From an uncultured Alphaproteobacteria bacterium (GTDB taxonomy: Bacteria > Pseudomonadota > Alphaproteobacteria > RF32 > CAG-239): a DNA stretch of 64,000 nt. The stretch covers positions 95,917 to 159,916 of the forward strand of contig CALXYB010000002.1 of NCBI GenBank assembly GCA_944392835.1, given 5' to 3'. Under the pieces are notes generated by a model. It was not told the DNA's origin. It saw only the letters and a program-made list of their open reading frames with translations, and did not search any database. This document shows, piece by piece, positions 17,710 to 29,824 of this stretch. A program made the translations under genes and the position numbers. Each line of letters begins with the position of its first letter. Position 1 is the first letter of the stretch.

Positions 17710-18528
17710 TTACTTCTGAAGCTTCCAGCGATTCGTGTAGTTTAATTCGGTCAGAAGATTCTCAGCTTCAGCGAAGTATCTTCCGAGCAAATCAACAGAG
17801 TGGGCATCATCGTTAATAACAATCGGAACATCTCTTTTGGCCAGCTCTTTCAGCATCCATGTATGCGGATGTTGCTCTCCGGCTTTGGTCCAGCCACTCG
17901 TATTTAACTCAAAGGGGTGTTTGGTCTTATCTAATGCTTCTATGACCATCCATTTATATTCATCCCATTCCGGCTCCAAACCTAACCCGAAAATTTTGAT
18001 AACATCTAAATGCGCGATGAAATCAAAATAACCGCTTTTTATAGATTCTATGACATTCAGCCAATAGTTCTTTATGCCGTCCTTCAAGGTTTCATCATCT
18101 ACTTGAATATTTGACCATTTCATGTGGTAAATATTCTGAACCCAGCTGGCATCATGATTCATTAAGTTATGAGTTGAGCCTATAAGATAATCTACATTGA
18201 GGCGATTCTTCAGTTTTTCAAAATCGCGGCGCCAATCTGCTGATTTGTAATAATCAACCTCAAAACCGACATAAACTTTTATTTTATGCCTTGCTGCGGC
18301 TTCTCTTATCTTATCGGCGGTCTTTAAATACACCGTTTCGGCCTTGGCAAAGTCGTCAAAATTCTGAGATGACCAGCAATATGACCCGGGCTTGCAAATT
18401 AGGTGATTGGATATGCCTAATTCCGTAAATCCGATTGATTCGGCTTTATCCATCATTTCATCAGGAGAATTATGCCCATCGTAGATGCCAAAATTATTTG
18501 TATGCGTGTGATAAGAAAAAGTTTGCAT
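17710..18528 (-). CDS. PHP-domain phosphoesterase (histidinol-phosphatase/YcdX-like)
   Basis: N-terminal H-x-H metal motif (YHTHTNN) and further His/Asp clusters (STHN, IAHLD, DDAHS) typical of PHP. Confidence 0.7.
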   Translation of the reverse strand: MQTFSYHTHTNNFGIYDGHNSPDEMMDKAESIGFTELGISNHLICKPGSYCWSSQNFDDFAKAETVYLKTADKIREAAARHKIKVYVGFEVDYYKSADWRRDFEKLKNRLNVDYLIGSTHNLMNHDASWVQNIYHMKWSNIQVDDETLKDGIKNYWLNVIESIKSGYFDFIAHLDVIKIFGLGLEPEWDEYKWMVIEALDKTKHPFELNTSGWTKAGEQHPHTWMLKELAKRDVPIVINDDAHSVDLLGRYFAEAENLLTELNYTNRWKLQK

Positions 18529-19157
18529 TATTTTAACCCCAAAATTTCATATACATCTTTATGGCACAAATCATCTAATTCTGCTTTCAACCCCATTCCC
18601 GTATTGATTAGTTTTTGAACAAGATCTTGGGGTAATTTATATCTTTGGCCTATGGCTTGAGCTCTTTTTTCAAAGGGTATCATTGACAGACCTTCAAATA
18701 GCCTATCTGTGAACTGAACAATACGATCGTAAACATCGTATTCCCAATTTTTCAATATTTCCCGAGCCTCAAGAATATCTGCTTTGGGGTAAGAAGGATA
18801 ATCGTCTACATCAATATTTTTTCCAGGAAAAGTATGACTTAAACAAGTGCGGGCAGGGCGCTCCCAGCCCATTGACATGAGCTCCTGATAACCAACAAGT
18901 CCGTGAAAATGACCTATTTTCTTCTCATTATATTTTTTCCCATAATCATGCAAAAGACCGCAAATATATGCCGTCTCAGGATTTACCTCTTTTATGTTTG
19001 CAGCAATGGCGCGGGAAGCAAAAGCAATGCCTTGTGTGTGAAAAATATATTCATCCATATAAACGAAATTATCATTTTCTTGTCTATATCTTAATCCATC
19101 CCACCACAGGCGCATCGCCTCACGCATATCAGGACATTTTAGAGAAAGTATTAGCAT
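18528..19157 (-). CDS. HD-domain phosphohydrolase (YqeK-like), paralog 1
   Basis: HD superfamily motifs H..x(n)..HD (IFHTQG ... GLLHDYGK). Confidence 0.7.
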   Translation of the reverse strand: MLILSLKCPDMREAMRLWWDGLRYRQENDNFVYMDEYIFHTQGIAFASRAIAANIKEVNPETAYICGLLHDYGKKYNEKKIGHFHGLVGYQELMSMGWERPARTCLSHTFPGKNIDVDDYPSYPKADILEAREILKNWEYDVYDRIVQFTDRLFEGLSMIPFEKRAQAIGQRYKLPQDLVQKLINTGMGLKAELDDLCHKDVYEILGLK

Positions 19158-19160
19158 AGG

Positions 19161-19778
19161 CTAGTTTACTCCCAATAAGCGATAAATATCGCAACCGCAA
19201 CGCCTATCAAAATAGTTTTTTAATCTTAAAGCCTGGCGATAGCGTTTTTTGATGAGTATTGTAGGGAGTCTATATTTGTCCTTTACATAAGCCATACGTT
19301 CTTTAATCGTACCAAAGCTCATACCGGTTACAAGCAAATCACAAAGCTGAATCAATCGGTCATAGTCGTTATATTCAATTGAGGATAGGATTTTTTTTGT
19401 CTTACGCATTTCTGGATAAGTGTACTCAGTATACTTAAAATCTTTATCAGGAAAAGTGTGGGTTAAACAAACTCTGGCAACTTCATCAAAGCCTAATTTG
19501 TTCATCTCCTTATAGCCGGTCAGGCCATGAAAATATTGTTTGCTATCGGCATCGCATATCATCTTACCATAATCATGCAACAAACCAAATATATAAGCCT
19601 TCTGAACATCCAGATATTGTAATCTTGAGGCAATCATCTCCGCGCAACAAGCAACCAAACAGCAATGGCTCCGATAAGATTTTTCAAAATAAAAAGCAAA
19701 ACGCGGTTGTTCTTCACGCATTTTGACCAAACCATCGTCAAATAAGTCAAGTGCTTGCTTTATGCTCGGACAAGTCAT
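19161..19778 (-). CDS. HD-domain phosphohydrolase (YqeK-like), paralog 2
   Basis: Colinear with paralog 1 (GLLHDYGK, HGLTGY, CLTHTFP). The 4-nt gap to mnmG indicates a tandem duplication in the same operon. Confidence 0.7.
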   Translation of the reverse strand: MTCPSIKQALDLFDDGLVKMREEQPRFAFYFEKSYRSHCCLVACCAEMIASRLQYLDVQKAYIFGLLHDYGKMICDADSKQYFHGLTGYKEMNKLGFDEVARVCLTHTFPDKDFKYTEYTYPEMRKTKKILSSIEYNDYDRLIQLCDLLVTGMSFGTIKERMAYVKDKYRLPTILIKKRYRQALRLKNYFDRRCGCDIYRLLGVN

Positions 19779-19781
19779 TTC

Positions 19782-21638
19782 TCACCTCTTTACATAACCC
19801 AAAACTGCTGTTATGGCCGCCGGCGTTACCCCAGGGATTCGCGAAGCTTCGCCAATGGTTGCCGGACGAACCTTGCTTAGCTTAGCAACCATCTCTCGCG
19901 ATAAGCCGCCTATTTTTGAATAATCTATATCATCTCTCAATTTCAGTTTTTCATCTTTTTTGAAAACTTCAATGTCCGCCATTTGGCGTTTGATATATCC
20001 GGCATAGCGTGCATCAATCTCTATCTGCTCATAAACATCGGCCGGAATATCTGACAGCTCGGGAAAGATTTGACCAATTGTTTCACGTGAAACACCGTCA
20101 TAAGACATTACATTAAAGGCTGTTCTGTGTGTGCCGTCTTTTTTGGTATGAATCCCGAATTTTTCAAGCTCGTTCGGCGTGATTGTCAGGCTTTCGCTTA
20201 TGCTGCGATAATGGCGAATTTTATCTCTTTTGGCTTTAAATACAGTGTATCTATGCTCGCCGACACAGCCGATTTCGTAGCCTTGCTCCGTCAAACGCGC
20301 ATCTGCATTATCCGCACGCAAGAATAACCGATATTCTGAACGAGATGTAAACATACGATAGGGCTCATCAACGCCTTTGGTAATTAAATCATCAACCATT
20401 ACGCCAATATAGGCGTTGCTACGGTCAATGAAAAATTCACGACCTTTGCCTTCAGCTTTTAAGGCCGCATTTACACCTGCTAATAACCCCTGTGCTGCAG
20501 CTTCTTCATAGCCGGTTGTGCCGTTAATCTGACCTGCCAAAAAGAGGTTTGGAGCCTTTTTGACCTCAAGCGTATGACTGAGCTCTTGCGGATCAACATA
20601 GTCATATTCAATAGCATAAGCAAAACGCAAAATTTCAACATTCTCCAAACCCTTCATTGTATGAATGAAGGCATCCTGAACATCTGCCGGAAGTGAGGTT
20701 GAAATACCGTTCGGATAAACAACATCCGTATTCAAACCTTCAGGCTCCAGAAAAATCTGGTGGCTGGTGCGGTCGGCAAATTTGACCAGCTTATCTTCAA
20801 TGCTTGGGCAATATCTCGGACCAACGCCGGTAATCAAACCAGAGAACAATGCGCATTTGGAAAAGTTATCTCTGATTATTTTATGCGTTTCCTCATTGGT
20901 TTGTGTGATGTGGCATTCTATTTGCGGATTGGTAATCTTTTCCGTTAAATAAGAAAAAGGCTCGGAATTTTCATCGCCGCTTTGGGTTTCCAAAATATCC
21001 CAATTTATGGTTTTGCCATTCAGGCGGGCAGGGGTTCCTGTCTTCAAACGGCCAACTTTGAGCCCCAAAGACTTTAAATACGGTGTTATACCGACACAAG
21101 CTGCATCTCCAACACGACCTCCCGGCGTGGCAACATGCCCCGTGAACATAATGCCGTTCAAAAAAGTGCCGGTTGTTAAAACAACTGCTCCGGCTTCGTA
21201 GGCTGTTCCATCTGCCAAGGTTACGCCGACAACGCTATTGTCTTTTATCAGCAAACCTTCTACCGCCGCTTCAATCAGGGTTAAATTTTTCTGCTCTTGC
21301 AAAGCCTCTAACATATATTTACGATAAAGTTCTCTATCTGCTTGCGCGCGAGGGCCTCTTACTGCCGGTCCTTTGGAGGCGTTTAACATACGAAATTGTA
21401 TGCCCGCCTTATCAATGACTTTACCCATTAAGCCATCAAGCGCGTCAATTTCTCTGACTAAATGTCCTTTGCCTAAACCACCGATTGCCGGATTGCAAGA
21501 CATCTCGCCAATGCGGTCAATGCGATGTGTGATTAACGCGGTTTTTGCACCTATTCTGGCTGCTGCCGCGCAAGCCTCACAACCGGCATGTCCGCCGCCG
21601 ACAACAATGACATCAAATTTATTATCTTTATCGCTCAT
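19782..21638 (-). CDS. mnmG: tRNA uridine-5-carboxymethylaminomethyl synthesis enzyme MnmG (GidA)
   Basis: FAD-binding motif [13 protein letters not shown] in a 618 aa GidA. Confidence 0.95.
20079..20094. other. parS centromere site (perfect TGTTTCACGTGAAACA) inside mnmG
   Basis: Exact 16-bp consensus palindrome. Confidence 0.85.
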
Positions 21639-21705
21639 TTATTTTGCCTTTTTTATTTTGCTGTATTCTATCATGTAAATCTTATTAACCAGTTAATATG
21701 TCAAC

Positions 21706-21741
21706 AGCAAATAAAGACCCGAACAAAATGTTCAGGTCTTT
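21706..21741 (-). terminator. Putative terminator downstream of mnmE
   Basis: 12-bp stem with one mismatch (aaagacccgaac / gttcaggtcttt) flanked by T-rich sequence. Confidence 0.4.
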
Positions 21742-21755
21742 ATTCTTATTTTTTA

Positions 21756-23102
21756 TTATTTTCCGATACAGAAACTACCGAAAATCTTATTTAATATATC
21801 ATCAACTTCTATGCGGCCGGTAATCTTACTCAAGCCTCTTGCAGCAAGCCGTATATCCTCTGCTGAAAGCTCTATCTCTTTATCAAAAGAAAAACGCTCC
21901 AGATTATCCAAAGTTTCGGCTAAAGCCTCACGATAACGTTGGCGCGTGATAAGCAAATTAGAATTTGCTGTAAATCTTTCTTTGATTTGCTGATATATAA
22001 CTTCCATTAAGTCGGCAATACCTTGTTTGTGTTTTGCAGAGATAACAACACAACTTTGTTTTTTGAGATTTGAACATTGTTCAAAAGTTAAATTATCAGA
22101 TTTGTTCGCAACATATATCGCTTTGTTTTTAAAAGAATTTTTAATATTGTCAAAGATTTGAACAGAGTCTTTTGAAGCATCAAATAAACAAAGAACCAAA
22201 TCAGCATCAGCGATTTTGCGGAAAGCAATTTCTATACCTTGTTTCTCAATTTCTTCTTCTACTTCTCTAATGCCTGCCGTATCCGTAAACATTACGGGAT
22301 AACCTTTAATATCCAAATGAACATCTACAGCGTCTCGTGTGGTTCCGGCAATGGATGATACGATTGCTGCTTCACGATTGACAACAGTGTTCAACAAACT
22401 TGATTTGCCGGCATTCGGCGGACCAACAATAACAACACGAAAACCCTCACGTAATCTTTCGCCGATTGAATCAGTGTTCAAGTGCTTAGAAATGGCTGTT
22501 TTAAGTTTAAATACATCGTTCAAAAGTTTATCAACCAACTCTTGCGGAATGTCCTCATCCGGAAAATCTATATAAGCCTCAAGATAAGCCATTATCTTAA
22601 TCAGCTCTTCTCTCCAGCCGTCATACAGATTTTTTAAACCGCCTTCCATTTGGCGCATGGCATATTTTTGTTGTTCAGATGTTTCAGAATCAATCAGGTC
22701 TGCTAAACCTTCGGCTTCTGTTAAATCCATTTTGCCGTTGTGAAAAGCACGTCTGGAAAATTCGCCGGGCTCAGCCATACGAAAGTCCGGAATTTTGCTT
22801 AGGTTCTCTAGAACTGAAGCAATTACCGCCTTAGAGCCGTGAGTCTGAAATTCTACAATATCTTCTCCCGTAAAAGAATGGGGAGCCTTAAAATAAAGCA
22901 GCAAACATTTATCCAATGTTTCACGGGAAACAATGTCTTTGATATCCGTAAAATATGCATAACGCGGTTTTAGGCTCTTTTCTTTCAAGTTTGTCAGCTT
23001 GGCAACGGCTTCTTTTGCTTTTGCTCCAGAAACACGAATAACAGCCACACCAGATTTGCCATAAACCGTTGACAGGGCATAAATTGTTTGATTATCCATC
23101 AT
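21756..23102 (-). CDS. mnmE: tRNA modification GTPase MnmE (TrmE)
   Basis: G-domain motifs (GPPNAGKSSL, DTAG, NKSD) and the C-terminal CxGK motif. Confidence 0.95.
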   Translation of the reverse strand: MMDNQTIYALSTVYGKSGVAVIRVSGAKAKEAVAKLTNLKEKSLKPRYAYFTDIKDIVSRETLDKCLLLYFKAPHSFTGEDIVEFQTHGSKAVIASVLENLSKIPDFRMAEPGEFSRRAFHNGKMDLTEAEGLADLIDSETSEQQKYAMRQMEGGLKNLYDGWREELIKIMAYLEAYIDFPDEDIPQELVDKLLNDVFKLKTAISKHLNTDSIGERLREGFRVVIVGPPNAGKSSLLNTVVNREAAIVSSIAGTTRDAVDVHLDIKGYPVMFTDTAGIREVEEEIEKQGIEIAFRKIADADLVLCLFDASKDSVQIFDNIKNSFKNKAIYVANKSDNLTFEQCSNLKKQSCVVISAKHKQGIADLMEVIYQQIKERFTANSNLLITRQRYREALAETLDNLERFSFDKEIELSAEDIRLAARGLSKITGRIEVDDILNKIFGSFCIGK

Positions 23103-23288: not shown

Positions 23289-23969
23289 ATGAACAAAATT
23301 AAACCAGAACTTATTATATGGGATTATGACGGCGTTTTGGCCGATAGCGAAAAATTATGGATTAAGATTTGGCAAAATATGCTTAATGAAAATTTTGACC
23401 TCGGATGGGATTTTGAAACCGCTGATAAATTTTTGGGCGGATTGGCCGTTAAAACAAAAATTAAAAATTTGCAAAAACTCGGCATAACTATTGATGATGA
23501 TTTTTTGCGCGAACTTAAAAGACGCGAAACCTATGATATTGAGCATAACCTGAAAGCAACCCCCGGCGTGGAAGAGATTTTGCAACAAACAAAAATTCCT
23601 TATTGTCTGGCAACCGGCGGATTCTTAGCCAAAACAGAGGCTAAACTCAAGGCAATGAACTTCAAAAAATACTTTCAGGATGACCATATTTTTACGGCAG
23701 AGCAGGTGGAGCACGGCAAACCAGAGCCTGACCTCTTTCTCTTTTCTGCCAAGCAAATGAATGCTTTGCCGCAAAACACCATTGTTATTGAAGACTCTTT
23801 GCCCGGTTTGCAAGCAGCTCAAGCTGCTGGTATGTTACCGGTGGCTTTTGTCGGAAGCGAAATGAACTGCACGCCCGAATATCAGCAAAAAGTACGTGAG
23901 CTTGGTGTTGAGCATATCTTTTTGACAATGAAAGAACTTTCTGATTTTTTAAAAAATATTGACAAATAG
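23289..23969 (+). CDS. HAD-superfamily hydrolase (beta-phosphoglucomutase/phosphatase subfamily IA)
   Basis: Motif I DYDGVL at the N-terminus, followed by a cap domain. Confidence 0.75.
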   Translation: MNKIKPELIIWDYDGVLADSEKLWIKIWQNMLNENFDLGWDFETADKFLGGLAVKTKIKNLQKLGITIDDDFLRELKRRETYDIEHNLKATPGVEEILQQTKIPYCLATGGFLAKTEAKLKAMNFKKYFQDDHIFTAEQVEHGKPEPDLFLFSAKQMNALPQNTIVIEDSLPGLQAAQAAGMLPVAFVGSEMNCTPEYQQKVRELGVEHIFLTMKELSDFLKNIDK

Positions 23970-24018
23970 CCAAAAATATTCATAATCTCTCATAAGAATT
24001 ATATTAATTAATTATATT

Positions 24019-24786
24019 ATGAGTAGAAGATTTTTTAGCGACCAGTCAAAATCAGATTTTGGCTACGCAGTGAAAATTGTTTTGGTGCTTGGCATTTTAA
24101 TCGGCACATTGGTTTACACCTTGAATGTCAGTAAAGAATTTCTCTTGTTTGGAATACTGACGTTTGTTGTATCTTTCATTGTGAACTTTTTTACAGATCG
24201 TTCGCGACTGAAAACAAGATGCCATTTCGGAAATGCTTTTTTCCTGGCTGTCGGCATTATGGCGATAATGACTTTGTTGCCAATCTATTTTTGGATCAAA
24301 GTGGGTATTGCCGTAATTTTTGGTGTTTTAGTAAATATCTATTGGGTTTTTATTGGTTCTCTTCTGTTTATTAGAAATACAGAAGAAATAACCATAGATA
24401 TTAATAATATTATGGCAACTAATGTCGTTTTTATTGTGATTTTCTTCGTATGCATTTTTTTCAGATTTCTGGATAATATGGCTGACAAAAAAGAGTTGGC
24501 ACGGGAAGAAAAACAGAATGCAGACATTGAAAAAGCTGAGCCTAATGGGGTTTATACTGTTTTTAAAGACGGAGAAACAACTTTTATTGTTAAAAAAGTT
24601 ATCCCTATCGTTGCAAGCGGCTATACCAAAGTTGTTTTGATTAGTGAGGATAATATGTTCTTCACAATCAACAGAAATATTGAGGAAGCCATATTGACCG
24701 AACCCGGACATATTGTTTGGGTGGAGGTTGATGAAGGTGGTTACTGCCTTGATTTTGACAACCAAAATATTGTCGTTATAAAATAA
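24019..24786 (+). CDS. Hypothetical membrane protein (4-5 TM) with soluble C-terminal domain; markedly AT-rich
   Basis: Hydrophobic helices followed by a charged linker and a beta-rich C-terminal domain of about 100 aa. I could not assign a family. Confidence 0.55.
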   Translation: MSRRFFSDQSKSDFGYAVKIVLVLGILIGTLVYTLNVSKEFLLFGILTFVVSFIVNFFTDRSRLKTRCHFGNAFFLAVGIMAIMTLLPIYFWIKVGIAVIFGVLVNIYWVFIGSLLFIRNTEEITIDINNIMATNVVFIVIFFVCIFFRFLDNMADKKELAREEKQNADIEKAEPNGVYTVFKDGETTFIVKKVIPIVASGYTKVVLISEDNMFFTINRNIEEAILTEPGHIVWVEVDEGGYCLDFDNQNIVVIK

Positions 24787-24806
24787 AATTATTAACTAAA
24801 AAAAAC

Positions 24807-24845
24807 AAGCGCCGGATTTTTTATAATTCGGCGCTTGGCTTTTTA
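24807..24845. terminator. Bidirectional rho-independent terminator
   Basis: Stem aagcgccg/cggcgctt with T-runs on both sides, between two convergent genes. Confidence 0.6.
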
Positions 24846-25727
24846 AAAACTTAAAACAGAATCTGAGGCTGTGTCTAAAATCGCTTCTTTGCCCAAAGGT
24901 AAGGTCATTTGCGGCAAGGTATGTCCCGTATCAAAACCTGCAATAACCGGAATATGACGCAAAGCCTCAAAAGCTTGTAATTTTTGCTTTACGGCTGCCA
25001 CATCAACAAGGCTGTTTTGCATAAACCTACCGATGATTAAGCCTCTGATATTTTTTGCAAAATCGTAATTAAACAAAGCCCACAGGTTACGCATAAACAT
25101 ATTAAAAGTTTCTGTACCGCATAAGTCATCTTCTTCGGCAATGATTATCATATCATCAAAAACCGGATAATATTTTGTTCCGGCAAGCATTATTTGGCTG
25201 CATAGATTGCCTCCGACAAGACGACCTTTGGCTTTTCCTTCATTGATGATTGTTAGCCCAGAATTGGCAAAGGTTTGCGTTTTGGAAATATGCGTATCCA
25301 TATAAGCCTTTGCCGGATAGTAATTTGCTCCTTTTTGCTCTAATGCTATAGAGATAAAATTTTTTATTCCATAATCCTCTACATCACCGTTTAAGGCTTT
25401 GAGATTCGGCCCTAAATATTGAACTATGCCAGTTTGCGCTAACAAAGCATTCAGTAAAACCGTGATGTCCGAATAACCACACAAGGGCTTGGTTATTTTA
25501 GAAAAATCAAGCTTTGGTAAAAGCTCTACGGAGTTAAAACCGCCGCGCGAGGCTATAATAACCTCCGCTTCGCTTGTTTGTGCCAGCATAAAGTCTTCTA
25601 ATTTACTTTTTGAAGTAAAAAACTCTACACTAATATCATTATCTGCCAAGCGTTTGACGGCGGTTTCTGTCTCTTGCTCCGATTTTAAGGGCAGAGAAGG
25701 GGAAATTACTCCGATTTTGTGTTGCAT
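24843..25727 (-). CDS. ldcA: LD-carboxypeptidase (muramoyltetrapeptide carboxypeptidase, peptidase S66)
   Basis: 294 aa, colinear with the LdcA family (peptidase S66). Confidence 0.75.
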   Translation of the reverse strand: MQHKIGVISPSLPLKSEQETETAVKRLADNDISVEFFTSKSKLEDFMLAQTSEAEVIIASRGGFNSVELLPKLDFSKITKPLCGYSDITVLLNALLAQTGIVQYLGPNLKALNGDVEDYGIKNFISIALEQKGANYYPAKAYMDTHISKTQTFANSGLTIINEGKAKGRLVGGNLCSQIMLAGTKYYPVFDDMIIIAEEDDLCGTETFNMFMRNLWALFNYDFAKNIRGLIIGRFMQNSLVDVAAVKQKLQAFEALRHIPVIAGFDTGHTLPQMTLPLGKEAILDTASDSVLSF

Positions 25728-25729
25728 TA

Positions 25730-27565
25730 TCAGAATCCTGCGGCTGTTTGTATTTTATTTGACATATAAGCACGTTGTACTTGTCTGCTTACAACATTTT
25801 CATCATTGCGGATGATGTTGGCAAGTCTTTTATAAAAAATGCTTCCGGGTGCTAAAATGCGGTCAAAATTGCCATTATCTGCAAAACGCAACAAGTTGCC
25901 TTTTACTCTTTCCTTCTGAGCGGTCTTTTCTTCTTCAGACATCGGTTGCCCCGTCATAAAAGAGTAAAAACGATGTACGGCCGCAGCTTCCAAAGCATCT
26001 CTTGAGGAGATTGAGGCAACATCATTGAGCAAATTATCGTCTATCTTGACACTGCCGTTTACCAAGTCACGATAGCCCAAAACATCACCGTTTTCCTTAA
26101 CACCCCAGATTTGAGCTTGCGCCGTGCGGTAATCAAAGCTTTCTATAACTTTGCGGCGTGCATTGATGTCTTCCTGATTGAACTCTTTATGTTTGCTTGC
26201 TTCATCAAAAACTTTTCCTAAGCCCTCTTTAATACGGCGAGCATAAACAATTTGCGAGCTTCCGCCCTCAATCTTTGCACCTGTTTCCAACAAAACAACA
26301 GCTAACATAAAGGAAACTTTGGGCATAGCCTCGCCGCTTCTTAAAGCCTCGGCAATTTGTTTTCTATCCATATTTTCCGTATATTCGTCACCAAGCATTT
26401 TGGCAAAAGCCGGCATCTTGTTAGAACCCATCGGCACCATATGATCCAGAAGATGATTATATTCATTGTCCGACTTGGTAGTGTGAATCTTCTTCATCTC
26501 GGTTTCAAAAACCGCTCTTGTTTGCGGATTGTCAAAAATCTGTGATGTCAGAGACTGAGGATTCTCCAAAATATCGGCCATAAAAGCAAAAATCGGCTTC
26601 TCTGCTTCTACACTTACCTGAATGACGGAGCTGTCTTTTAATAAGTCATTGGCTTGCATGGCATGAATTGAAGCCAGCTGCAAAGCTCCGAGCTCTGTTT
26701 CCGGTGTGCCTTTTTCCTGATTGTAAGCTCTTTGTTTTTCCAACAATTTCATAACTTTTTTCAGCATTCTGACATCATTTTGAAACTGTTGTTCAACTTG
26801 TGTTGAAAACTCGGTTAAAACATCTTTATGCAACAAAGAAAGTTCTTTTACCGTGTTCATGGATAAATCCTTAAACTCCATACCTTGCGGCATAAATTCT
26901 TTGTTGATTAAGTGATGCCAACGGGCTTTCAAAGATTTTGCAGCCAGAGATTTTTTCTCAAACATATCTTTTTTCATCTCTTTTTCATGCGCTTTTAAGG
27001 CTGCAATTTTTTCCGGCGTATCATATCCGGGAAGTGTCATAGCAATAACTTTCGGATAAATTTTGCTGTACAAATAAAGCGGCGGACCGTAAACAAAGGG
27101 GTCGCAAATCTCGGGGCCGGTCTGGTTATCGGTATTTACGCGGCCAGACATCAGAGATAAATTGAACTTTTCGCCAAAATGATGTGCTCTTGCGGCTTGG
27201 TTAACAAACTTGTAGCAAGAGTGAAACATATTATAGTCATTTTCTTCAACCGTTGCCTCCGCACCACGTTTGTCTCTTTGGCGCATGGGGCCGAGGTGGT
27301 CGGAAAAGTCAAAACGAAAATCTTTTTTCAGCTGTTCATAAAGCTCTTTTGACAATAATTTTCTATTTTCTTCTTCCACTACTGCTGCGTAAGTATCATT
27401 GACGCGTTTTAAAATCTTATACATAAAGCTTTCGGCATAAGGAAAAAGTTTCGGATTATAAGGGTTTTTACTTCCGTCGCTATAAGTTTCTCCTAAAGAA
27501 GCTTCTGTATCAAGGTATGAAAATTCGGGTTTTTTGGCAAGTACGGCCTGACTATATTTACTCAT
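25730..27565 (-). CDS. Large hypothetical protein (611 aa), no recognisable domain
   Basis: Long clean ORF separated from LdcA by 2 nt. The sequence is charged and has no signal peptide or TM helix. Confidence 0.6.
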   Translation of the reverse strand: MSKYSQAVLAKKPEFSYLDTEASLGETYSDGSKNPYNPKLFPYAESFMYKILKRVNDTYAAVVEEENRKLLSKELYEQLKKDFRFDFSDHLGPMRQRDKRGAEATVEENDYNMFHSCYKFVNQAARAHHFGEKFNLSLMSGRVNTDNQTGPEICDPFVYGPPLYLYSKIYPKVIAMTLPGYDTPEKIAALKAHEKEMKKDMFEKKSLAAKSLKARWHHLINKEFMPQGMEFKDLSMNTVKELSLLHKDVLTEFSTQVEQQFQNDVRMLKKVMKLLEKQRAYNQEKGTPETELGALQLASIHAMQANDLLKDSSVIQVSVEAEKPIFAFMADILENPQSLTSQIFDNPQTRAVFETEMKKIHTTKSDNEYNHLLDHMVPMGSNKMPAFAKMLGDEYTENMDRKQIAEALRSGEAMPKVSFMLAVVLLETGAKIEGGSSQIVYARRIKEGLGKVFDEASKHKEFNQEDINARRKVIESFDYRTAQAQIWGVKENGDVLGYRDLVNGSVKIDDNLLNDVASISSRDALEAAAVHRFYSFMTGQPMSEEEKTAQKERVKGNLLRFADNGNFDRILAPGSIFYKRLANIIRNDENVVSRQVQRAYMSNKIQTAAGF

Positions 27566-27622
27566 TTTGGTTTTCTCTTTCTCGTTTTGTTGTTTTCTGT
27601 TCTTTTGTAATTTTTGCTTTAT

Positions 27623-27656
27623 CCTCTGATTATCAAATTACCCAAATAATCAGAGG
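27623..27656. promoter_or_regulatory. Perfect 11-bp inverted repeat (cctctgattat-N12-ataatcagagg) in the 5' region of the 611-aa gene
   Basis: Read directly from the sequence, 58-90 bp upstream of the start codon. Confidence 0.4.
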
Positions 27657-28004
27657 CTCATAAGCTCCAAAACCGAAAGAGTTGCTGTATTATTCTTTAT
27701 TTTCATTTTCTGCTATATCTTTACATTAAAAAAATTAACCATCAAAAAACAAAGCTTGTTGATTTTTCATCCTCCAAGCACCCAAGCCTTGCCAAAAAGT
27801 AAAAGTGCTTAGAGGTTCATAATCAACAACAACAAAATGCTGATTAGCAGAATTTTTGCAGAAATAAGGGCGAAAGCTTCCGGTAAAAATTCGGAAGTTT
27901 TGAAAATAGAATATGTTTTGCCAAAAAATGACATCTTTCGCCTTTGTTTTTGTTAAACCGCGTTAATTATATGGACAGAAAATATTTTATGTCAACTTAT
28001 TTTA

Positions 28005-28034
28005 TAAAAAAAAATCCCTCTTTTGTGAGGGATT
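28005..28034 (-). terminator. Rho-independent terminator of rho
   Basis: Stem aatccctc/gagggatt followed on the minus strand by T8, directly 3' of rho. Confidence 0.7.
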
Positions 28035-28044
28035 TTTTATTTTT

Positions 28045-29298
28045 TTAAGAATTCATGGTATTGAAAAAGTCTTCGTTGTCTTTGGATTGTCTGAGCTTAT
28101 CCAACAAAAATTCCATACCATCGGTCATACCCATTTGCATCAAGACACGACGCAATACCCACATTTTGGAAAGTGTGGCTTTGTCTACCAACAACTCTTC
28201 CTTACGAGTGCCTGAACGCGTAATATCTATGGTCGGGAAGAGACGCTTATCGGTTAACTTTCTATCCAAAATGATTTCGGAGTTACCTGTTCCTTTGAAC
28301 TCCTCAAAAATAACCTCATCCATACGAGAACCCGTATCAATCAAAGCTGTGGCAATGATTGTTAAAGAACCTCCTTCCTCTACATTACGTGCAGCACCGA
28401 GCAGACGTTTCGGTCTTTGCAGAGCATTGGCGTCAACACCTCCGGTTAAAACTTTACCGGATGAAGGAATAACCGTATTATATGCACGGCCCAAACGTGT
28501 GATGGAGTCAAGCAAGATGACAACATCTTTTTTGGTTTCTACCAAACGCTTGGCTTTTTCAATAACCATTTCGGCAACCTGAACATGGCGCGCAGCCGGC
28601 TCATCAAAGGTGGAAGAAATAACCTCACCTTTAACTGAACGGCTCATATCCGTTACTTCTTCCGGACGTTCATCAATCAATAAAACCATTAAATAAACTT
28701 CAGGGTGGTTGGTGGCTATGGCATGTGCAATGTTTTGCAACATTACGGTTTTACCTGTTCTCGGAGGAGCAACAATCAGACCGCGTTGACCTTTGCCTTG
28801 CGGGGCAATCAGGTCAATAATGCGCGTGGTATAGTCTTTTTCGCCGCAGATGATATCAAAGTCTAGTTTTTTGATCGGATAAAGCGGGGTTAGGTTATCA
28901 AAATTTACACGAAGTTTTGATTTTTCGGGATCTTCAAAGTTAATGGTGTTAATCTTGGTTAGAGCAAAATAACGTTCATTATCTTTTGGACCACGGATTT
29001 CACCTTCAACCGTATCTCCGGTGCGCAGACCAAATTTTTTAACTTGAGCCGGTGATACATAAATATCATCAGGGCTGGCCAAATAATTGGATTCAGCAGA
29101 ACGCAAAAAACCAAAGCCATCTTGCAAAACTTCTATCGTTCCTTCGCCATAAATGGTTTGATCATCAGATGCCACTTTTTTCATAATGGCAAAAATTAAA
29201 TCCTGAACACGCATAGATGATGCGTCTTCTATTCCTAATTCCTCCGCTTGAGTTAATAACTCCTTGGGAGATTTTTGCTTTAAATCTTTTAAATGCAT
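28045..29298 (-). CDS. rho: Transcription termination factor Rho
   Basis: N-terminal RNA-binding domain and a RecA-like ATPase domain with Walker A GKT; 417 aa. Confidence 0.96.
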
Positions 29299-29824
29299 TG
29301 TAACCTTGATATATTATTGGGTGTGAAAGTAATTAAGAAAAGGGAAATATCCCTCTGTATAGTATTATTAGAATTACTGTATGTCTGTTTTATATTATTT
29401 AAATGAATGAAAGTCAATTAAATGTTGTTTGATTTTTATACACAGTCAAAAAGCCCCATATAAATATTTTTAAAATTTTAGTTGTTATTTGTATATCCCT
29501 GCTGTTTATGTGTATAAGTTTTTATTAACAGAGATATCCAAAAGTTAAAAGAATGTTAATAAGATTGTTAACGGAATTTAAGAATTATTAACGAATCGTT
29601 AACTTTGTTTTTCTTGATTCTGTAAACTTTAAATTGAGTATTTTGTTGATAAGTTTTTTTATCAACCCTTGTGCGAAAAAATATACCCCTGTGCGTAAAG
29701 TTGTATATTGGATTTTACATTGTGGTGATTAGTTTGTATAAATATGCAAGAGAGCTTAGTTATGCACAGTTTTGGGCTTGTTTGTGTATAAGTGAGTCAG
29801 GGTTTTGATTTTAAGGAATTTTTT
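29299..29824. other. Candidate chromosomal replication origin (oriC): AT-rich 0.5 kb region with DnaA-box-like and CtrA-box motifs
   Basis: Three exact copies of TTATACACA/TGTGTATAA (29436-29444, 29509-29517, 29783-29791) plus a 1-mismatch copy (29733-29741). A perfect CtrA box lies at 29588-29603. The region sits between rho and coaE-dnaQ. Confidence 0.55.
29588..29603. promoter_or_regulatory. CtrA-box consensus TTAA-N7-TTAAC
   Basis: ttaacgaatcgttaac, with extra overlapping TTAA half-sites upstream. Confidence 0.5.

Follow-up and report, generated by a model that had tools for sequence, protein, structure and literature searches.

What separates mnmE from rho in this gut alphaproteobacterial MAG (Candidatus Scatocola relatives), and do the intervening genes share one history? 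In Asticcacaulis (L091) rho and mnmE are directly adjacent, as the first-pass annotation had assumed for the ancestral arrangement, while in the window, i.e. the whole 64,000-nucleotide stretch of DNA analysed here, four genes intervene. Open reading frames and Pfam/NCBIfam matches bear out the annotated calls of these four genes, and both flanking genes score above their NCBIfam equivalog cut-offs. The block proposed at the time (23289-27565) encloses the four genes, but omits a 480-bp leader region (27566-28044) that belongs to the cassette described below. The locus comprises:

21756-23102, minus strand: mnmE, flank, anchor of the conserved divergent HAD-mnmE pair (NCBIfam NF003661, 570.7 bits, cut-off 380)
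23289-23969, plus strand: HAD-IA phosphatase-like hydrolase (Pfam HAD_2, 2.3e-24, and Hydrolase; TIGR01509, 61.4 bits, cut-off 29.4)
24019-24786, plus strand: MEM-A, membrane protein of 255 aa with 4-5 TM segments and a C-terminal soluble beta-rich domain of ~90 aa
24806-24837, no strand: bidirectional terminator hairpin common to MEM-A and the S66 gene (13-bp stem, then T-run), distal cassette boundary
24843-25727, minus strand: MccF-like S66 serine peptidase, second cassette gene (Pfam Peptidase_S66 and S66C)
25730-27565, minus strand: ORF611, 611 aa, first cassette gene, predicted member of a BshC-like / class I aaRS-fold superfamily
28009-28038, no strand: rho terminator (12-bp stem, then T-run), proximal cassette boundary
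28045-29298, minus strand: rho, flank (NCBIfam TIGR00767, 683 bits)

Compositionally, the four genes do not form an island; the interval between mnmE and rho is made up of three layers. The best explanation, which we favour with moderate confidence, is that this locus carries a leader-attenuated cassette of an amide ligase and a hydrolase. The first layer is the HAD gene, long resident and vertically inherited in this family of gut alphaproteobacteria: it is syntenic with mnmE, and transcribed divergently from it, in all relatives whose mnmE is at least 61 % identical, occupies the same position in L012-L036, L042 and L045, and has a dN/dS of 0.03-0.09. The second layer consists of one or two fast-evolving tandem paralogs past HAD, of which MEM-A has been kept and MEM-B lost here. 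MEM-A, with TM segments at residues 17-35, 41-59, 95-113 and 130-148, has no match in Pfam or NCBIfam, and is distantly similar to MEM-B (hhalign probability 82 %, E 1e-5), whose gene (733 bp) is present in L013, L045, L014 and L010 and absent from the window. Members of the MEM family lie downstream of HAD in several genera; MEM-A is 76-88 % identical between relatives in which neighbouring genes are 94-99 % identical, and its dN/dS is 0.16-0.30. No tie of HAD or MEM-A to the ORF611+S66 cassette was found.

This self-contained cassette is the third layer and fills a variable slot between the HAD/MEM genes and rho. It extends over 24845-28036 on the minus strand in the order promoter, leader ORF, RNA element, second leader unit, ORF611 and S66 gene, the last starting 2 bp past the ORF611 stop. 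Exactly the ORF611+S66 cassette is missing in a relative with 98-99 % mnmE identity, and the L012 sequence skips from window position 24844 to 28037, the rho terminator having gone along with the cassette. The pairing is not obligatory, because the S66 partner is absent in L007, L009 and L099. ORF611 relatives occur on gut-metagenome or MAG contigs only, and those identified are kin of this alphaproteobacterial group. Of the joint acquisition once proposed for all four genes, the synteny comparison retains one part: ORF611, S66 and leader alone are gained or lost as a unit, whereas HAD is conserved and the MEM family spans several genera. A mobile character is likewise real only for the ORF611+S66 pair, which other genera carry in unrelated genomic settings (once amid resolvase, ParB/RepB and zeta-toxin genes).

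In sister genera, the same leader precedes other cassettes in the same slot, namely ATP-grasp with AstE (the partner being of the AstE/AspA type), the GS-like Amidoligase_2 with FGase, and GNAT with M20. ORF611+S66 is one swappable cassette under a conserved small-ORF/RNA leader. Gene neighbourhoods that combine an amidoligase with a peptidase or deacylase were reportedly described by Iyer, Abhiman, Burroughs & Aravind in 2009 (Mol Biosyst 5:1636), under a title that names three amide-forming folds: ATP-grasp, GS-like and GNAT. The alternative pairs in the slot have the same three folds, each with an amidohydrolase, and ORF611+S66 follows a like two-gene logic. In contrast to those neighbourhoods, ORF611 would add a fourth fold, HUP/class I aaRS-like, and the four pairs here share a single genomic slot and a single conserved leader. 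To our knowledge, a shared slot and leader for amidoligase-type pairs have not been described.

The leader is composed of the following elements:

27966-27995, minus strand: cassette promoter TTGACA-18-TATAAT, sigma-70 type, 12/12 consensus match
27809-27934, minus strand: leader small ORF, 41 codons, Leu/Ile-rich, MSFFGKTYSIFKTSEFLPEAFALISAKILLISILLLLIMNL
27739-27815, minus strand: conserved RNA element, helices P1 and P2, then U-run
27815-27805 with 27781-27771, minus strand: helix P2, containing the small-ORF stop codon
27791-27783 with 27758-27750, minus strand: helix P1, then U-run 27749-27739
27623-27706, minus strand: second, degenerate leader unit with an 18-codon mini-ORF MKIKNNTATLSVLELMSL at 27706-27650, its stop within the hairpin CCTCTGATTA/TAATCAGAGG

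The promoter TTGACA is kept in all aligned leaders. A small ORF of 34-42 codons precedes each ORF611 copy and the alternative cassettes alike, and Leu or Ile account for 8-13 of its last 20 residues in 14 of 15 cases. P1 and P2 cross and form a pseudoknot topology. Among 12 sequences, 94.6 % of the cells in the RNA element are paired, compared with 35-52 % in slid controls; 10 of the 20 base pairs have changed at both positions (1 of 500 shuffles was as good), the covariation score of 0.388 compares with 0.245 +/- 0.022 for shuffles (0 of 500 as high), and the MFE is -29.1 kcal/mol (z -4.0). In the alignment, the U-run is weak in the L014 and L007 leaders and absent from those of the ATP-grasp (L042, L025) and Amidoligase_2 (L016, L015) cassettes. 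No classic terminator/antiterminator competition is evident, because P1 and P2 do not overlap, and a third helix able to compete is not conserved. The second leader unit is matched by the CM R1 (27592-27689, 27.2 bits, E 0.018) and has equivalents in L010, L013, L014, L042 and L028; these tandem units are degenerate and shorter (16-18 codons).

Leader-peptide attenuators are known from the leu, ilv, pheA and his operons, and TnaC-type leaders sense a stop codon. The cassette leader shares with these attenuators a strong promoter, a short ORF that has a Shine-Dalgarno-like sequence and is rich in given amino acids (here Leu/Ile; in L035 Phe/Tyr), helices that take in the ORF end, a U-run hairpin before the structural genes, and tandem units. 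In contrast to these classic systems, its helices cross instead of forming 1:2, 2:3 and 3:4 alternatives, its RNA element has no match in Rfam, and the genes under it are not those of amino-acid biosynthesis, one leader serving interchangeable cassettes. Cassette expression may be set by ribosome-dependent attenuation, and we infer both the direction of the switch and its signal: ribosomes translating the leader ORF, the end of which (final codons and stop) lies inside P2, would decide whether the P1 hairpin and U-run end transcription, and the Leu/Ile-rich tail could render the switch sensitive to Leu/Ile-tRNA charging.

Alternatively, the small ORF might be a functional product and not a regulatory leader, either a tail-anchored mini-membrane protein or a scaffold/substrate peptide, whose C-terminus the ligase extends and the carboxypeptidase trims in a RiPP-/pearlin-like or peptide-tagging manner, as in amidoligase neighbourhoods. 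We consider this unlikely. It would agree with the association of the small ORF with four amide-forming enzyme families, each with a peptidase or deacylase, and with its conserved C-terminus (LIMNL/LIMSL) and TM-like tail; a genuine small membrane protein would also have a hydrophobic tail. However, the codons conserved at the C-terminus coincide exactly with the paired nucleotides of the covarying helix P2, and RNA constraints therefore explain their conservation. Substitutions in the N-terminal half lack codon-position bias, and the L035 tail is Phe/Tyr-rich with a different ending. The U-run hairpin that follows and the tandem degenerate units are typical of attenuators.

By sequence, the S66 protein resembles MccF-like enzymes much more closely than it does LdcA. 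It fails the LdcA equivalog model (82.6, cut-off 378); among solved structures it is nearest to that of the MccF-like BA_5613 protein (4e5s) and to 5usd (E 3e-40), and it matches MccF at 4e-20 and LdcA structures at 1e-15 to 1e-9. Its GYSDIT (Ser) and GHT (His) motifs align with the solved relatives, S66 domains and Ser/His motifs being common to MccF-like proteins (microcin C immunity; B. anthracis BA_5613, Listeria Lmo1638) and LdcA. MccF cuts the carboxamide bond that joins an aminoacyl or peptidyl group to a nucleotide (PMC9239234). Unlike in mcc clusters, the gene here lies without mcc context (no MccA/MccB), and unlike MccF and LdcA it is co-transcribed with a predicted aaRS-fold enzyme.

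These data also bear on the cell-wall or muropeptide module suggested in the first-pass annotation, which fits neither the HAD and membrane proteins nor the MccF-like character of S66. For ORF611+S66 the idea is supported indirectly, because remote homologs of ORF611 (~25 among 1.84 billion representatives) adjoin OSBS/NSAR-type racemases, or Ala racemase (Alr) and D-Ala-D-Ala dipeptidase (DdpX). Specifically, the pair might serve murein-peptide recycling or catabolism, S66 acting as LdcA, which takes the terminal D-Ala off the tetrapeptide, and ORF611 performing a non-orthologous later step, e.g. Mpl-like re-ligation or feeding a dipeptide epimerase (E. coli LdcA/Mpl/MpaA/YcjG, B. subtilis YkfABC). 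In the ykfABCD and ldcA-mpl-mpaA-ycjG systems, an S66 LD-carboxypeptidase and an enolase-superfamily dipeptide epimerase act in a single pathway with documented cases of non-orthologous displacement (PMC2954226), and genes of the ORF611 family adjoin S66, enolase-superfamily racemases, alanine racemase and a D-Ala-D-Ala dipeptidase. We nevertheless hold a murein role to be improbable: S66 is nearer to MccF-like proteins, the enolase-superfamily neighbours pass the OSBS/NSAR model but fail those for L-Ala-D/L-Glu epimerases, partners of the NlpC/P60, MpaA or Mpl kind were not seen, and the same leader and slot carry ATP-grasp, GS-like and GNAT cassettes without a known murein role.

ORF611 has no sequence match in Pfam, NCBIfam, PHROG or PDB, the BshC and aaRS models of Pfam and NCBIfam included, and Foldseek found nothing for its predicted model in PDB. 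This model is uncertain in the loops of highest conservation, with a pLDDT <50 at residues 90-113 and 141-177. It appears to represent a new, formerly unannotated superfamily, the predicted catalytic fold being that of BshC (putative cysteine ligase, bacillithiol; PDB 4WBD), MshC and class I aminoacyl-tRNA synthetases, with sequence identities of 6-9 % to their catalytic domains. In contrast to these enzymes, the family is taxonomically very narrow (39 clusters among 5.8 billion proteins, besides the remote members); it has no evident anticodon-binding domain as in class I aaRS, a general family-library scan found no BshA/BshB-like gene in the neighbourhoods read, and its partners are the MccF-like S66 peptidase, OSBS/NSAR-type racemases and Alr with DdpX. 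We predict a cytoplasmic amino-acid-activating amide ligase: ORF611 would activate an amino acid with ATP and couple it to an acceptor amine through an amide bond, the product probably being an aminoacyl-(D-)amino-acid or aminoacyl-X linkage. The MccF-like S66 protein would hydrolyse the same bond type, and the pair may therefore make and trim, or proof-read or detoxify, one small amide-linked compound.

That ORF611 is non-catalytic or not a ligase, e.g. a regulator or nucleotide-binding sensor that keeps the Rossmann-like HUP fold, seems to us quite unlikely. HIGH and KMSKS motifs in their canonical form are not evident: of a possible HIGH-like motif (H90-L-G) only one His is invariant, and no invariant Lys is available for a KMSKS-like motif. 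Ligase activity of BshC, too, has never been demonstrated in vitro (PMC4360819). On the other hand, ORF611 is strongly conserved, with long invariant motifs and a dN/dS of 0.04, genes of remote members consistently overlap enzyme genes, and ORF611 fills the slot position that ligases hold in the analogous cassettes. An amide ligase is the reading that we retain.

The composition of the block gives no sign of a foreign origin. Against the 62 window genes (GC 0.417 +/- 0.030, GC3 0.413 +/- 0.046), GC/GC3 is 0.394/0.396 in HAD, 0.392/0.359 in S66, 0.405/0.392 in ORF611 and 0.345/0.348 in the membrane-protein gene, the most GC-poor of the window. The last is AT-rich because of its hydrophobic amino acids, GC at codon positions 1/2 being 0.41/0.28, the window minimum. 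The first-pass annotation had called the whole block AT-rich; only this gene is, and the flanks have equal or lower GC or GC3 (mnmE 0.382/0.312; coaE GC 0.378). Ordered by synonymous-codon divergence, the four genes take ranks 33, 34, 51 and 61 of 62 (z -0.3 to 2.0; median of all genes 2.1), and no tRNA, integrase or flanking repeat was found at the block. A single AT-rich island from outside the lineage, forming a joint cell-wall accessory module, is very improbable and already largely refuted: the genes do interrupt an otherwise widespread rho-mnmE adjacency and include an S66 peptidase, but their GC3 and codon usage are typical, their histories differ, only ORF611+S66 varies in presence, and the 39 ORF611 clusters derive without exception from metagenome or MAG assemblies, the neighbourhoods read belonging to this gut alphaproteobacterial MAG group or to contigs without assigned lineage.

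The variable slot beside rho lies one gene from a probable replication origin:

29299-29824, no strand: probable replication origin (context), cumulative GC-skew minimum at ~28-29 kb, interval of 32 % GC

This putative origin contains five DnaA-box matches with one mismatch, at 29436-29791.

The interval between mnmE and rho is best read as two old resident genes joined by a swappable, leader-controlled cassette, which consists of the leader, ORF611 and the S66 gene. The four open reading frames that the first-pass annotation had placed here are all present exactly as it listed them, and the genes on either side are unambiguous:

Genes of the mnmE-rho interval and its flanks (window positions)
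19782-23102, minus strand: mnmG and mnmE, identified unambiguously by NCBIfam
23289-23969, plus strand: HAD-IA hydrolase
24019-24786, plus strand: MEM-A, a 255-aa membrane protein of no curated family
24843-25727, minus strand: S66 peptidase
25730-27565, minus strand: ORF611, a protein of 611 aa and of no curated family
28045-29298, minus strand: rho, identified unambiguously by NCBIfam

Family searches matched the HAD and S66 proteins but not MEM-A and ORF611, for which no usable annotation came from Pfam, NCBIfam, PHROGs, PADLOC or a profile search of PDB; a PADLOC match to PDC-S35 (E 0.009), located in the coiled-coil region, was treated as noise. The HAD protein carries the Pfam domains HAD_2 and Hydrolase, passes TIGR01509 (61.4 against a cut-off of 29.4) and has an N-terminal DxD nucleophile motif (residues 9-16, IIWDYDGV), while all specific models at the equivalog level stayed under their cut-offs.

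The block had also been described as AT-rich and, on that ground, as possibly acquired by horizontal transfer. Its composition does not bear this out, as per-gene GC, GC3 and codon usage are ordinary and rule out a compositional island. In the window (41 % GC overall) the 62 genes have a GC of 0.417 ± 0.030 and a GC3 of 0.413 ± 0.046, compared with a GC3 of 0.35-0.40 for the block genes; HAD, S66 and ORF611 are unremarkable, and mnmE itself (GC3 0.312) falls below every gene of the block. The only low GC value in the block is that of MEM-A (0.345), and its shortfall at codon positions 1 and 2 points to hydrophobic residues. In synonymous codon divergence the four genes rank 33, 34, 51 and 61 of 62. 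Mobile-element borders are likewise ruled out, with no tRNA gene in 15-35 kb, none within 10 kb, and no integrase, flanking repeat or other meaningful repeat at the block borders. The cassette is bordered by terminator hairpins, and the junction in the relative L012 has T-run microhomology only. As first stated, the island finding is ordinary and mostly wrong.

The mnmE neighbourhoods of 80 species-representative genomes, onto which the window proteins were mapped, show the interval to be built in layers. Contigs identical or near-identical to the window occur in human and animal gut metagenomes, and among named organisms the closest is Candidatus Scatocola faecigallinarum (L014; mnmE identity 86 %). 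The first layer is the HAD gene, which stands divergent from mnmE in every relative with an mnmE identity of at least 61 %; since rho directly adjoins HAD in five genomes (gaps of 42-55 bp), the basic arrangement of the family is rho, HAD, mnmE. The second layer comprises one or two membrane-protein genes downstream of HAD. MEM-B (244 aa), a remote paralog of MEM-A (hhalign probability 82 %, E 1e-5), is found in L013, L045, L014 and L010, and L030, L032 and L081 have distant homologs of it; it is missing from the window, where the difference is a clean 733 bp, and MEM-A is missing from L010. MEM-A has evolved 5-8 times faster than its neighbours (dN/dS 0.16-0.30 against 0.01-0.09). The third layer, ORF611 with S66, occupies this site only in the closest clade, i.e. 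the window, L013, L045, L014 and L010.

Patchy presence in close relatives is confined to the cassette and the MEM paralogs and does not extend to HAD. L012 (8257-8320), a species-level relative (mnmE 98-99 % identical) known from a single MAG assembly, is without exactly the stretch 24845-28036, which holds the S66 gene, ORF611, the 480-bp region upstream of it and the rho terminator; rho is there served by the terminator of MEM-A. The cassette is located elsewhere in L007, L009, L098 and L099, and ORF611 homologs at 54-70 % identity occupy unrelated neighbourhoods. What remains of the proposed horizontal acquisition is a mobile cassette beside a resident HAD and membrane gene, with no island signal, and the cassette appears to move within the lineage. 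L098 (1-12400) has kept an ORF611-S66 pair of 70 % identity whole, with its leader and a 4-bp gene overlap, and the neighbours of this pair (a serine recombinase/resolvase, two ParB/RepB genes, PLD, zeta-toxin and umuD/dinB-like genes) give the region the look of a mobile element, either integrated or plasmid-like.

Neighbouring genes differ widely in dS (against L002, 0.005 for S66 and 0.24 for HAD), a sign that homologous recombination has been frequent in this region. Compared with L014, the dS of the S66 gene is 0.69 and that of its neighbours 2.1-2.5; S66 is 84 % identical to that of L014 and 66 % to that of L010, compared with 83 % to both for ORF611. This pattern suggests that S66 was recently exchanged by recombination on its own.

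Other genera of the family have different gene pairs in the slot between rho and the HAD/MEM genes, encoded on the strand that carries ORF611 and S66 here:

Alternative occupants of the slot beside rho
L042, L025 and L035: 610-aa ATP-grasp protein and AstE/AspA-type deacylase
L015 and L016: 570-aa Amidoligase_2 protein and N-formylglutamate amidohydrolase
L028: GNAT and M20 peptidase

The larger, amide-forming enzyme precedes the amide-cleaving one, and in the GNAT-M20 pair the smaller gene comes first. Iyer et al. reportedly described such pairing of amide-forming and amide-cleaving genes for amidoligase neighbourhoods in 2009. The slot of L035 (1-3675) contains two tandem ATP-grasp cassettes. 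Two slot proteins have no family match: a coiled-coil-rich protein of 615 aa on the opposite strand in L028 (4898-6745), and a protein of 565 aa with N-terminal TM segments in L019 (7322-9019). On the other side of rho, the spacer to coaE (29299-29824, 32 % GC) carries five DnaA boxes with one mismatch each (three copies of TTATACACA, one of TTATCAACA and one of TTATGCACA) as well as several TTAAC/GTTAA motifs. The cumulative GC skew also reaches its minimum here, at about 28-29 kb, and the spacer is probably oriC. A single gene thus separates the slot from the likely origin of replication.

Upstream of ORF611, a stretch of 480 bp which the first-pass annotation had not included in the block contains three elements in order:

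Leader elements upstream of ORF611
27995-27966, minus strand: perfect promoter, TTGACA-18-TATAAT
27934-27809, minus strand: predicted small ORF of 41 codons
27815-27739, minus strand: conserved RNA segment

All three are kept 5' of every ORF611 copy, relocated copies included, and by its invariant core, CTTGGGTGCTTGGAGG, the same leader was found before the ATP-grasp, Amidoligase_2 and GNAT cassettes. The predicted small ORF has 34-42 codons and a purine-rich Shine-Dalgarno-like sequence in 15 leaders, in 14 of which Leu or Ile takes up 8-13 of the 20 C-terminal positions. In the leader before the second ATP-grasp cassette of L035 the tail is instead rich in Phe and Tyr (AALAFYFSYYFFIGF). No such small ORF was found upstream of the remote ORF611 homologs (L092, L094-L097). 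A real peptide substrate or a membrane protein as the product would agree with a recurrent tail of this kind; the N-terminal half shows no codon-position bias in its evolution and the ORF has no match in Pfam, and we regard such a product as unlikely.

A covariance model, R1, built from 12 leaders scores these at 76-120 bits and the untrained full-length leader of L045 at 119.5 bits. It finds one new instance, in L035 (42 bits), as well as degenerate second tandem units (27 bits at 27592-27689 of the window), and nothing further across the 64 kb; in Rfam 15 no covariance model matched 27566-28000 at E up to 1. Two helices are supported. P1 is a helix of 9 bp with 7 covarying pairs, after which most ORF611 leaders have a U-run; L014, L007 and the leaders of the ATP-grasp and amidoligase cassettes show a weak U-run or none. 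In P2 (11 bp) the last codons of the small ORF and its stop codon pair with GUGCUUGGAGG. The two helices have no nucleotides in common and cross each other in a pseudoknot topology. In 12 sequences 94.6 % of the cells of P1 and P2 are paired, against 35-52 % in slid controls; 10 of the 20 pairs show two-sided changes, a number reached by 1 of 500 shuffles, and the covariation score of 0.388 (shuffles 0.245 ± 0.022) was reached by none of 500. The leader of L028, not alignable by MAFFT, lies outside this count and its pairing was judged by eye. A third helix between the run of Leu codons and the 3' strand of P1, taken from the minimum-free-energy fold of the window, was 73 % paired, no better than shuffles, and was rejected.

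Because the stop codon lies within P2, the position of the ribosome must affect this helix, and the traits of the leader, as read from sequence, would be those of a ribosome-dependent attenuator. Classic attenuators have a competing antiterminator, whereas none is evident in this leader. As in leader-peptide attenuators, whose short ORF is enriched in the sensed amino acid, the ORF is rich in Leu/Ile here and in Phe/Tyr in L035. From the shared slot and the shared leader we take the four kinds of cassette to be functional alternatives that answer one signal, plausibly the charging of Leu/Ile-tRNA. The leader is in itself of interest as a candidate cis-regulatory element absent from Rfam, which combines a small ORF with two covarying, crossing helices.

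ORF611 shows strong conservation (dN/dS 0.04) and has extended motifs that are invariant. In a set of 5.8 billion proteins its family amounts to 39 clusters, every one of them from a metagenome or MAG assembly. Searching 1.84 billion representatives with a profile added about 25 remote homologs of 430-560 aa, which possess the motifs of ORF611 and lack its central coiled-coil insert. A profile of the mixed alignment A2 recovered only the ORF611 subfamily from the 5.8-billion-protein set, and a metagenome scan with six remote homolog sequences gave one locus. No Pfam domain was found in the scanned remote homologs except in one of them, P0064, whose fused C-terminus matches M15 weakly, and 20 members had no Pfam family in common at E up to 10. 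ORF611 matches no BshC sequence model in Pfam or NCBIfam, and Pfam scans of 10 and 20 remote members gave no match to the BshC family.

The predicted model of ORF611 has the architecture of BshC, in which a Rossmann core carrying CP insertions is joined by a coiled coil, and the catalytic Rossmann (HUP) fold of class I aminoacyl-tRNA synthetases (aaRS); in a Foldseek search of this model against PDB there was no match (E of 2 or more). The fold makes an MpaA/YkfC-like hydrolase unlikely. An invariant His, H90, stands after the first beta-strand in the motif (D/T)xH(L/I)(G/S). Among the fold matches, the enzymes of known activity, class I aaRS and MshC, carry out ATP-dependent amino-acid activation. 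BshC and MshC are assumed to join cysteine to an amino sugar by an amide bond, and the activity of BshC has never been reconstituted (PMC4360819). Among the neighbouring genes inspected for family annotation there is no bshA/bshB-like pair of glycosyltransferase and deacetylase. The chemistry of BshC could also be approached through a sister family that stands in other genomic contexts.

These contexts recur. In three independent remote members the next gene, with overlapping stop and start codons, belongs to the enolase superfamily, and these neighbours pass the OSBS/N-succinylamino-acid-racemase model TIGR01928; downstream of a fourth member lie an alanine racemase and a D-Ala-D-Ala dipeptidase, and a fifth, P0064, is fused to an M15-like domain. 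The latter (L097 4920-7673) is a 917-aa ORF in which a family copy lacking its N-terminus, another N-terminal piece of the family and, at the C-terminus, an M15 (D-Ala-D-Ala dipeptidase-like) part are apparently joined; it may reflect a rearrangement, or else an artefact of assembly or a frameshift. Before the remote BshC-like genes in L092 (5500-5986, the C-terminus of an 861-aa protein) and L095 (612-845, a 77-aa ORF) the products share the segments ISQALLAR/ISKSLLAR and DLKFMALD/DLRILASD, which may mark a further conserved partner in that subfamily.

The S66 protein has the domains PF02016 and PF17676, and its Ser (GYSDIT) and His (GHT) motifs align with those of solved S66 enzymes. Both domains and the catalytic Ser and His are shared with LdcA, but the protein fails the LdcA equivalog model NF008424 (82.6 bits, cut-off 378), and MccF-like proteins are clearly closer: its relatives in PDB are MccF-like proteins of Bacillus anthracis and Listeria (3e-40), followed by MccF (4e-20) and LdcA (1e-15 to 1e-9). 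The likeness to MccF is one of sequence proximity only, and among the genes read in the window and the loci nothing like mccA or mccB stood out. MccF cuts the carboxamide bond that joins an aminoacyl or peptidyl group to a nucleotide (PMC9239234). Taken with S66, the contexts of the superfamily point to a common theme of amide bonds with D-amino acids or aminoacyl groups. In the best-supported reading ORF611 would belong to a new BshC-like family and act as an amide ligase that activates amino acids, and the S66 enzyme, which is MccF-like, would hydrolyse the bond that ORF611 makes.

Other functions fit the pair less well. The cell-wall module proposed by the first-pass annotation gains from the racemase and dipeptidase neighbours of remote ORF611 homologs, but the S66 protein is MccF-like and the link is indirect; that ORF611 and S66 form a pair for the recycling of murein peptides seems improbable. 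A non-catalytic or non-ligase ORF611 would agree with the sequence-level comparison to HIGH and KMSKS, in which ORF611 has H90 but neither another His nor a motif with an invariant Lys; with its strong conservation, we consider this very unlikely.

There is also a slim chance that the slot beside rho is a port for cassettes which serve as inducible defences against aaRS inhibitors, with a leader that senses charging and an ORF611 that handles an aminoacyl-nucleotide. Stalled ribosomes would report the charging of Leu/Ile-tRNA (of Phe/Tyr-tRNA in L035) and turn on interchangeable two-enzyme modules, a sensor that would work because the antibiotic itself lowers tRNA charging, and ORF611 would be a new aaRS-fold enzyme binding or re-processing the aminoacyl-nucleotide. 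An MccF-like peptidase and a GNAT are two classic detoxifiers of Trojan-horse antibiotics that mimic aminoacyl-adenylates (PMC9239234); the GNAT in the slot of L028 may be likened to MccE as the S66 protein is to MccF, and it is these modules, with the aptness of a charging-sensitive leader, that suggest the idea.

The superfamily has a confident BshC/class I synthetase fold, yet no sequence match in Pfam, NCBIfam or PDB, and its genes are found repeatedly with those of racemases and of peptidases that act on D-amino-acid or aminoacyl-amide bonds. One leader stands before four unrelated amide-ligase/amidohydrolase pairs at one chromosomal position beside the probable origin, and their implied functional interchangeability, under one signal, is a directly testable claim on amidoligase and peptidase neighbourhoods. 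The hosts are uncultured yet common gut alphaproteobacteria. Elsewhere in the window, two tandem HD/HDOD paralogs, of 205 and 209 aa, lie together with a PHP-domain gene between mnmG and gidB (17710-19778); their copy number varies in the family, with one to three HD genes and a duplicated PHP gene in L025 and L029.
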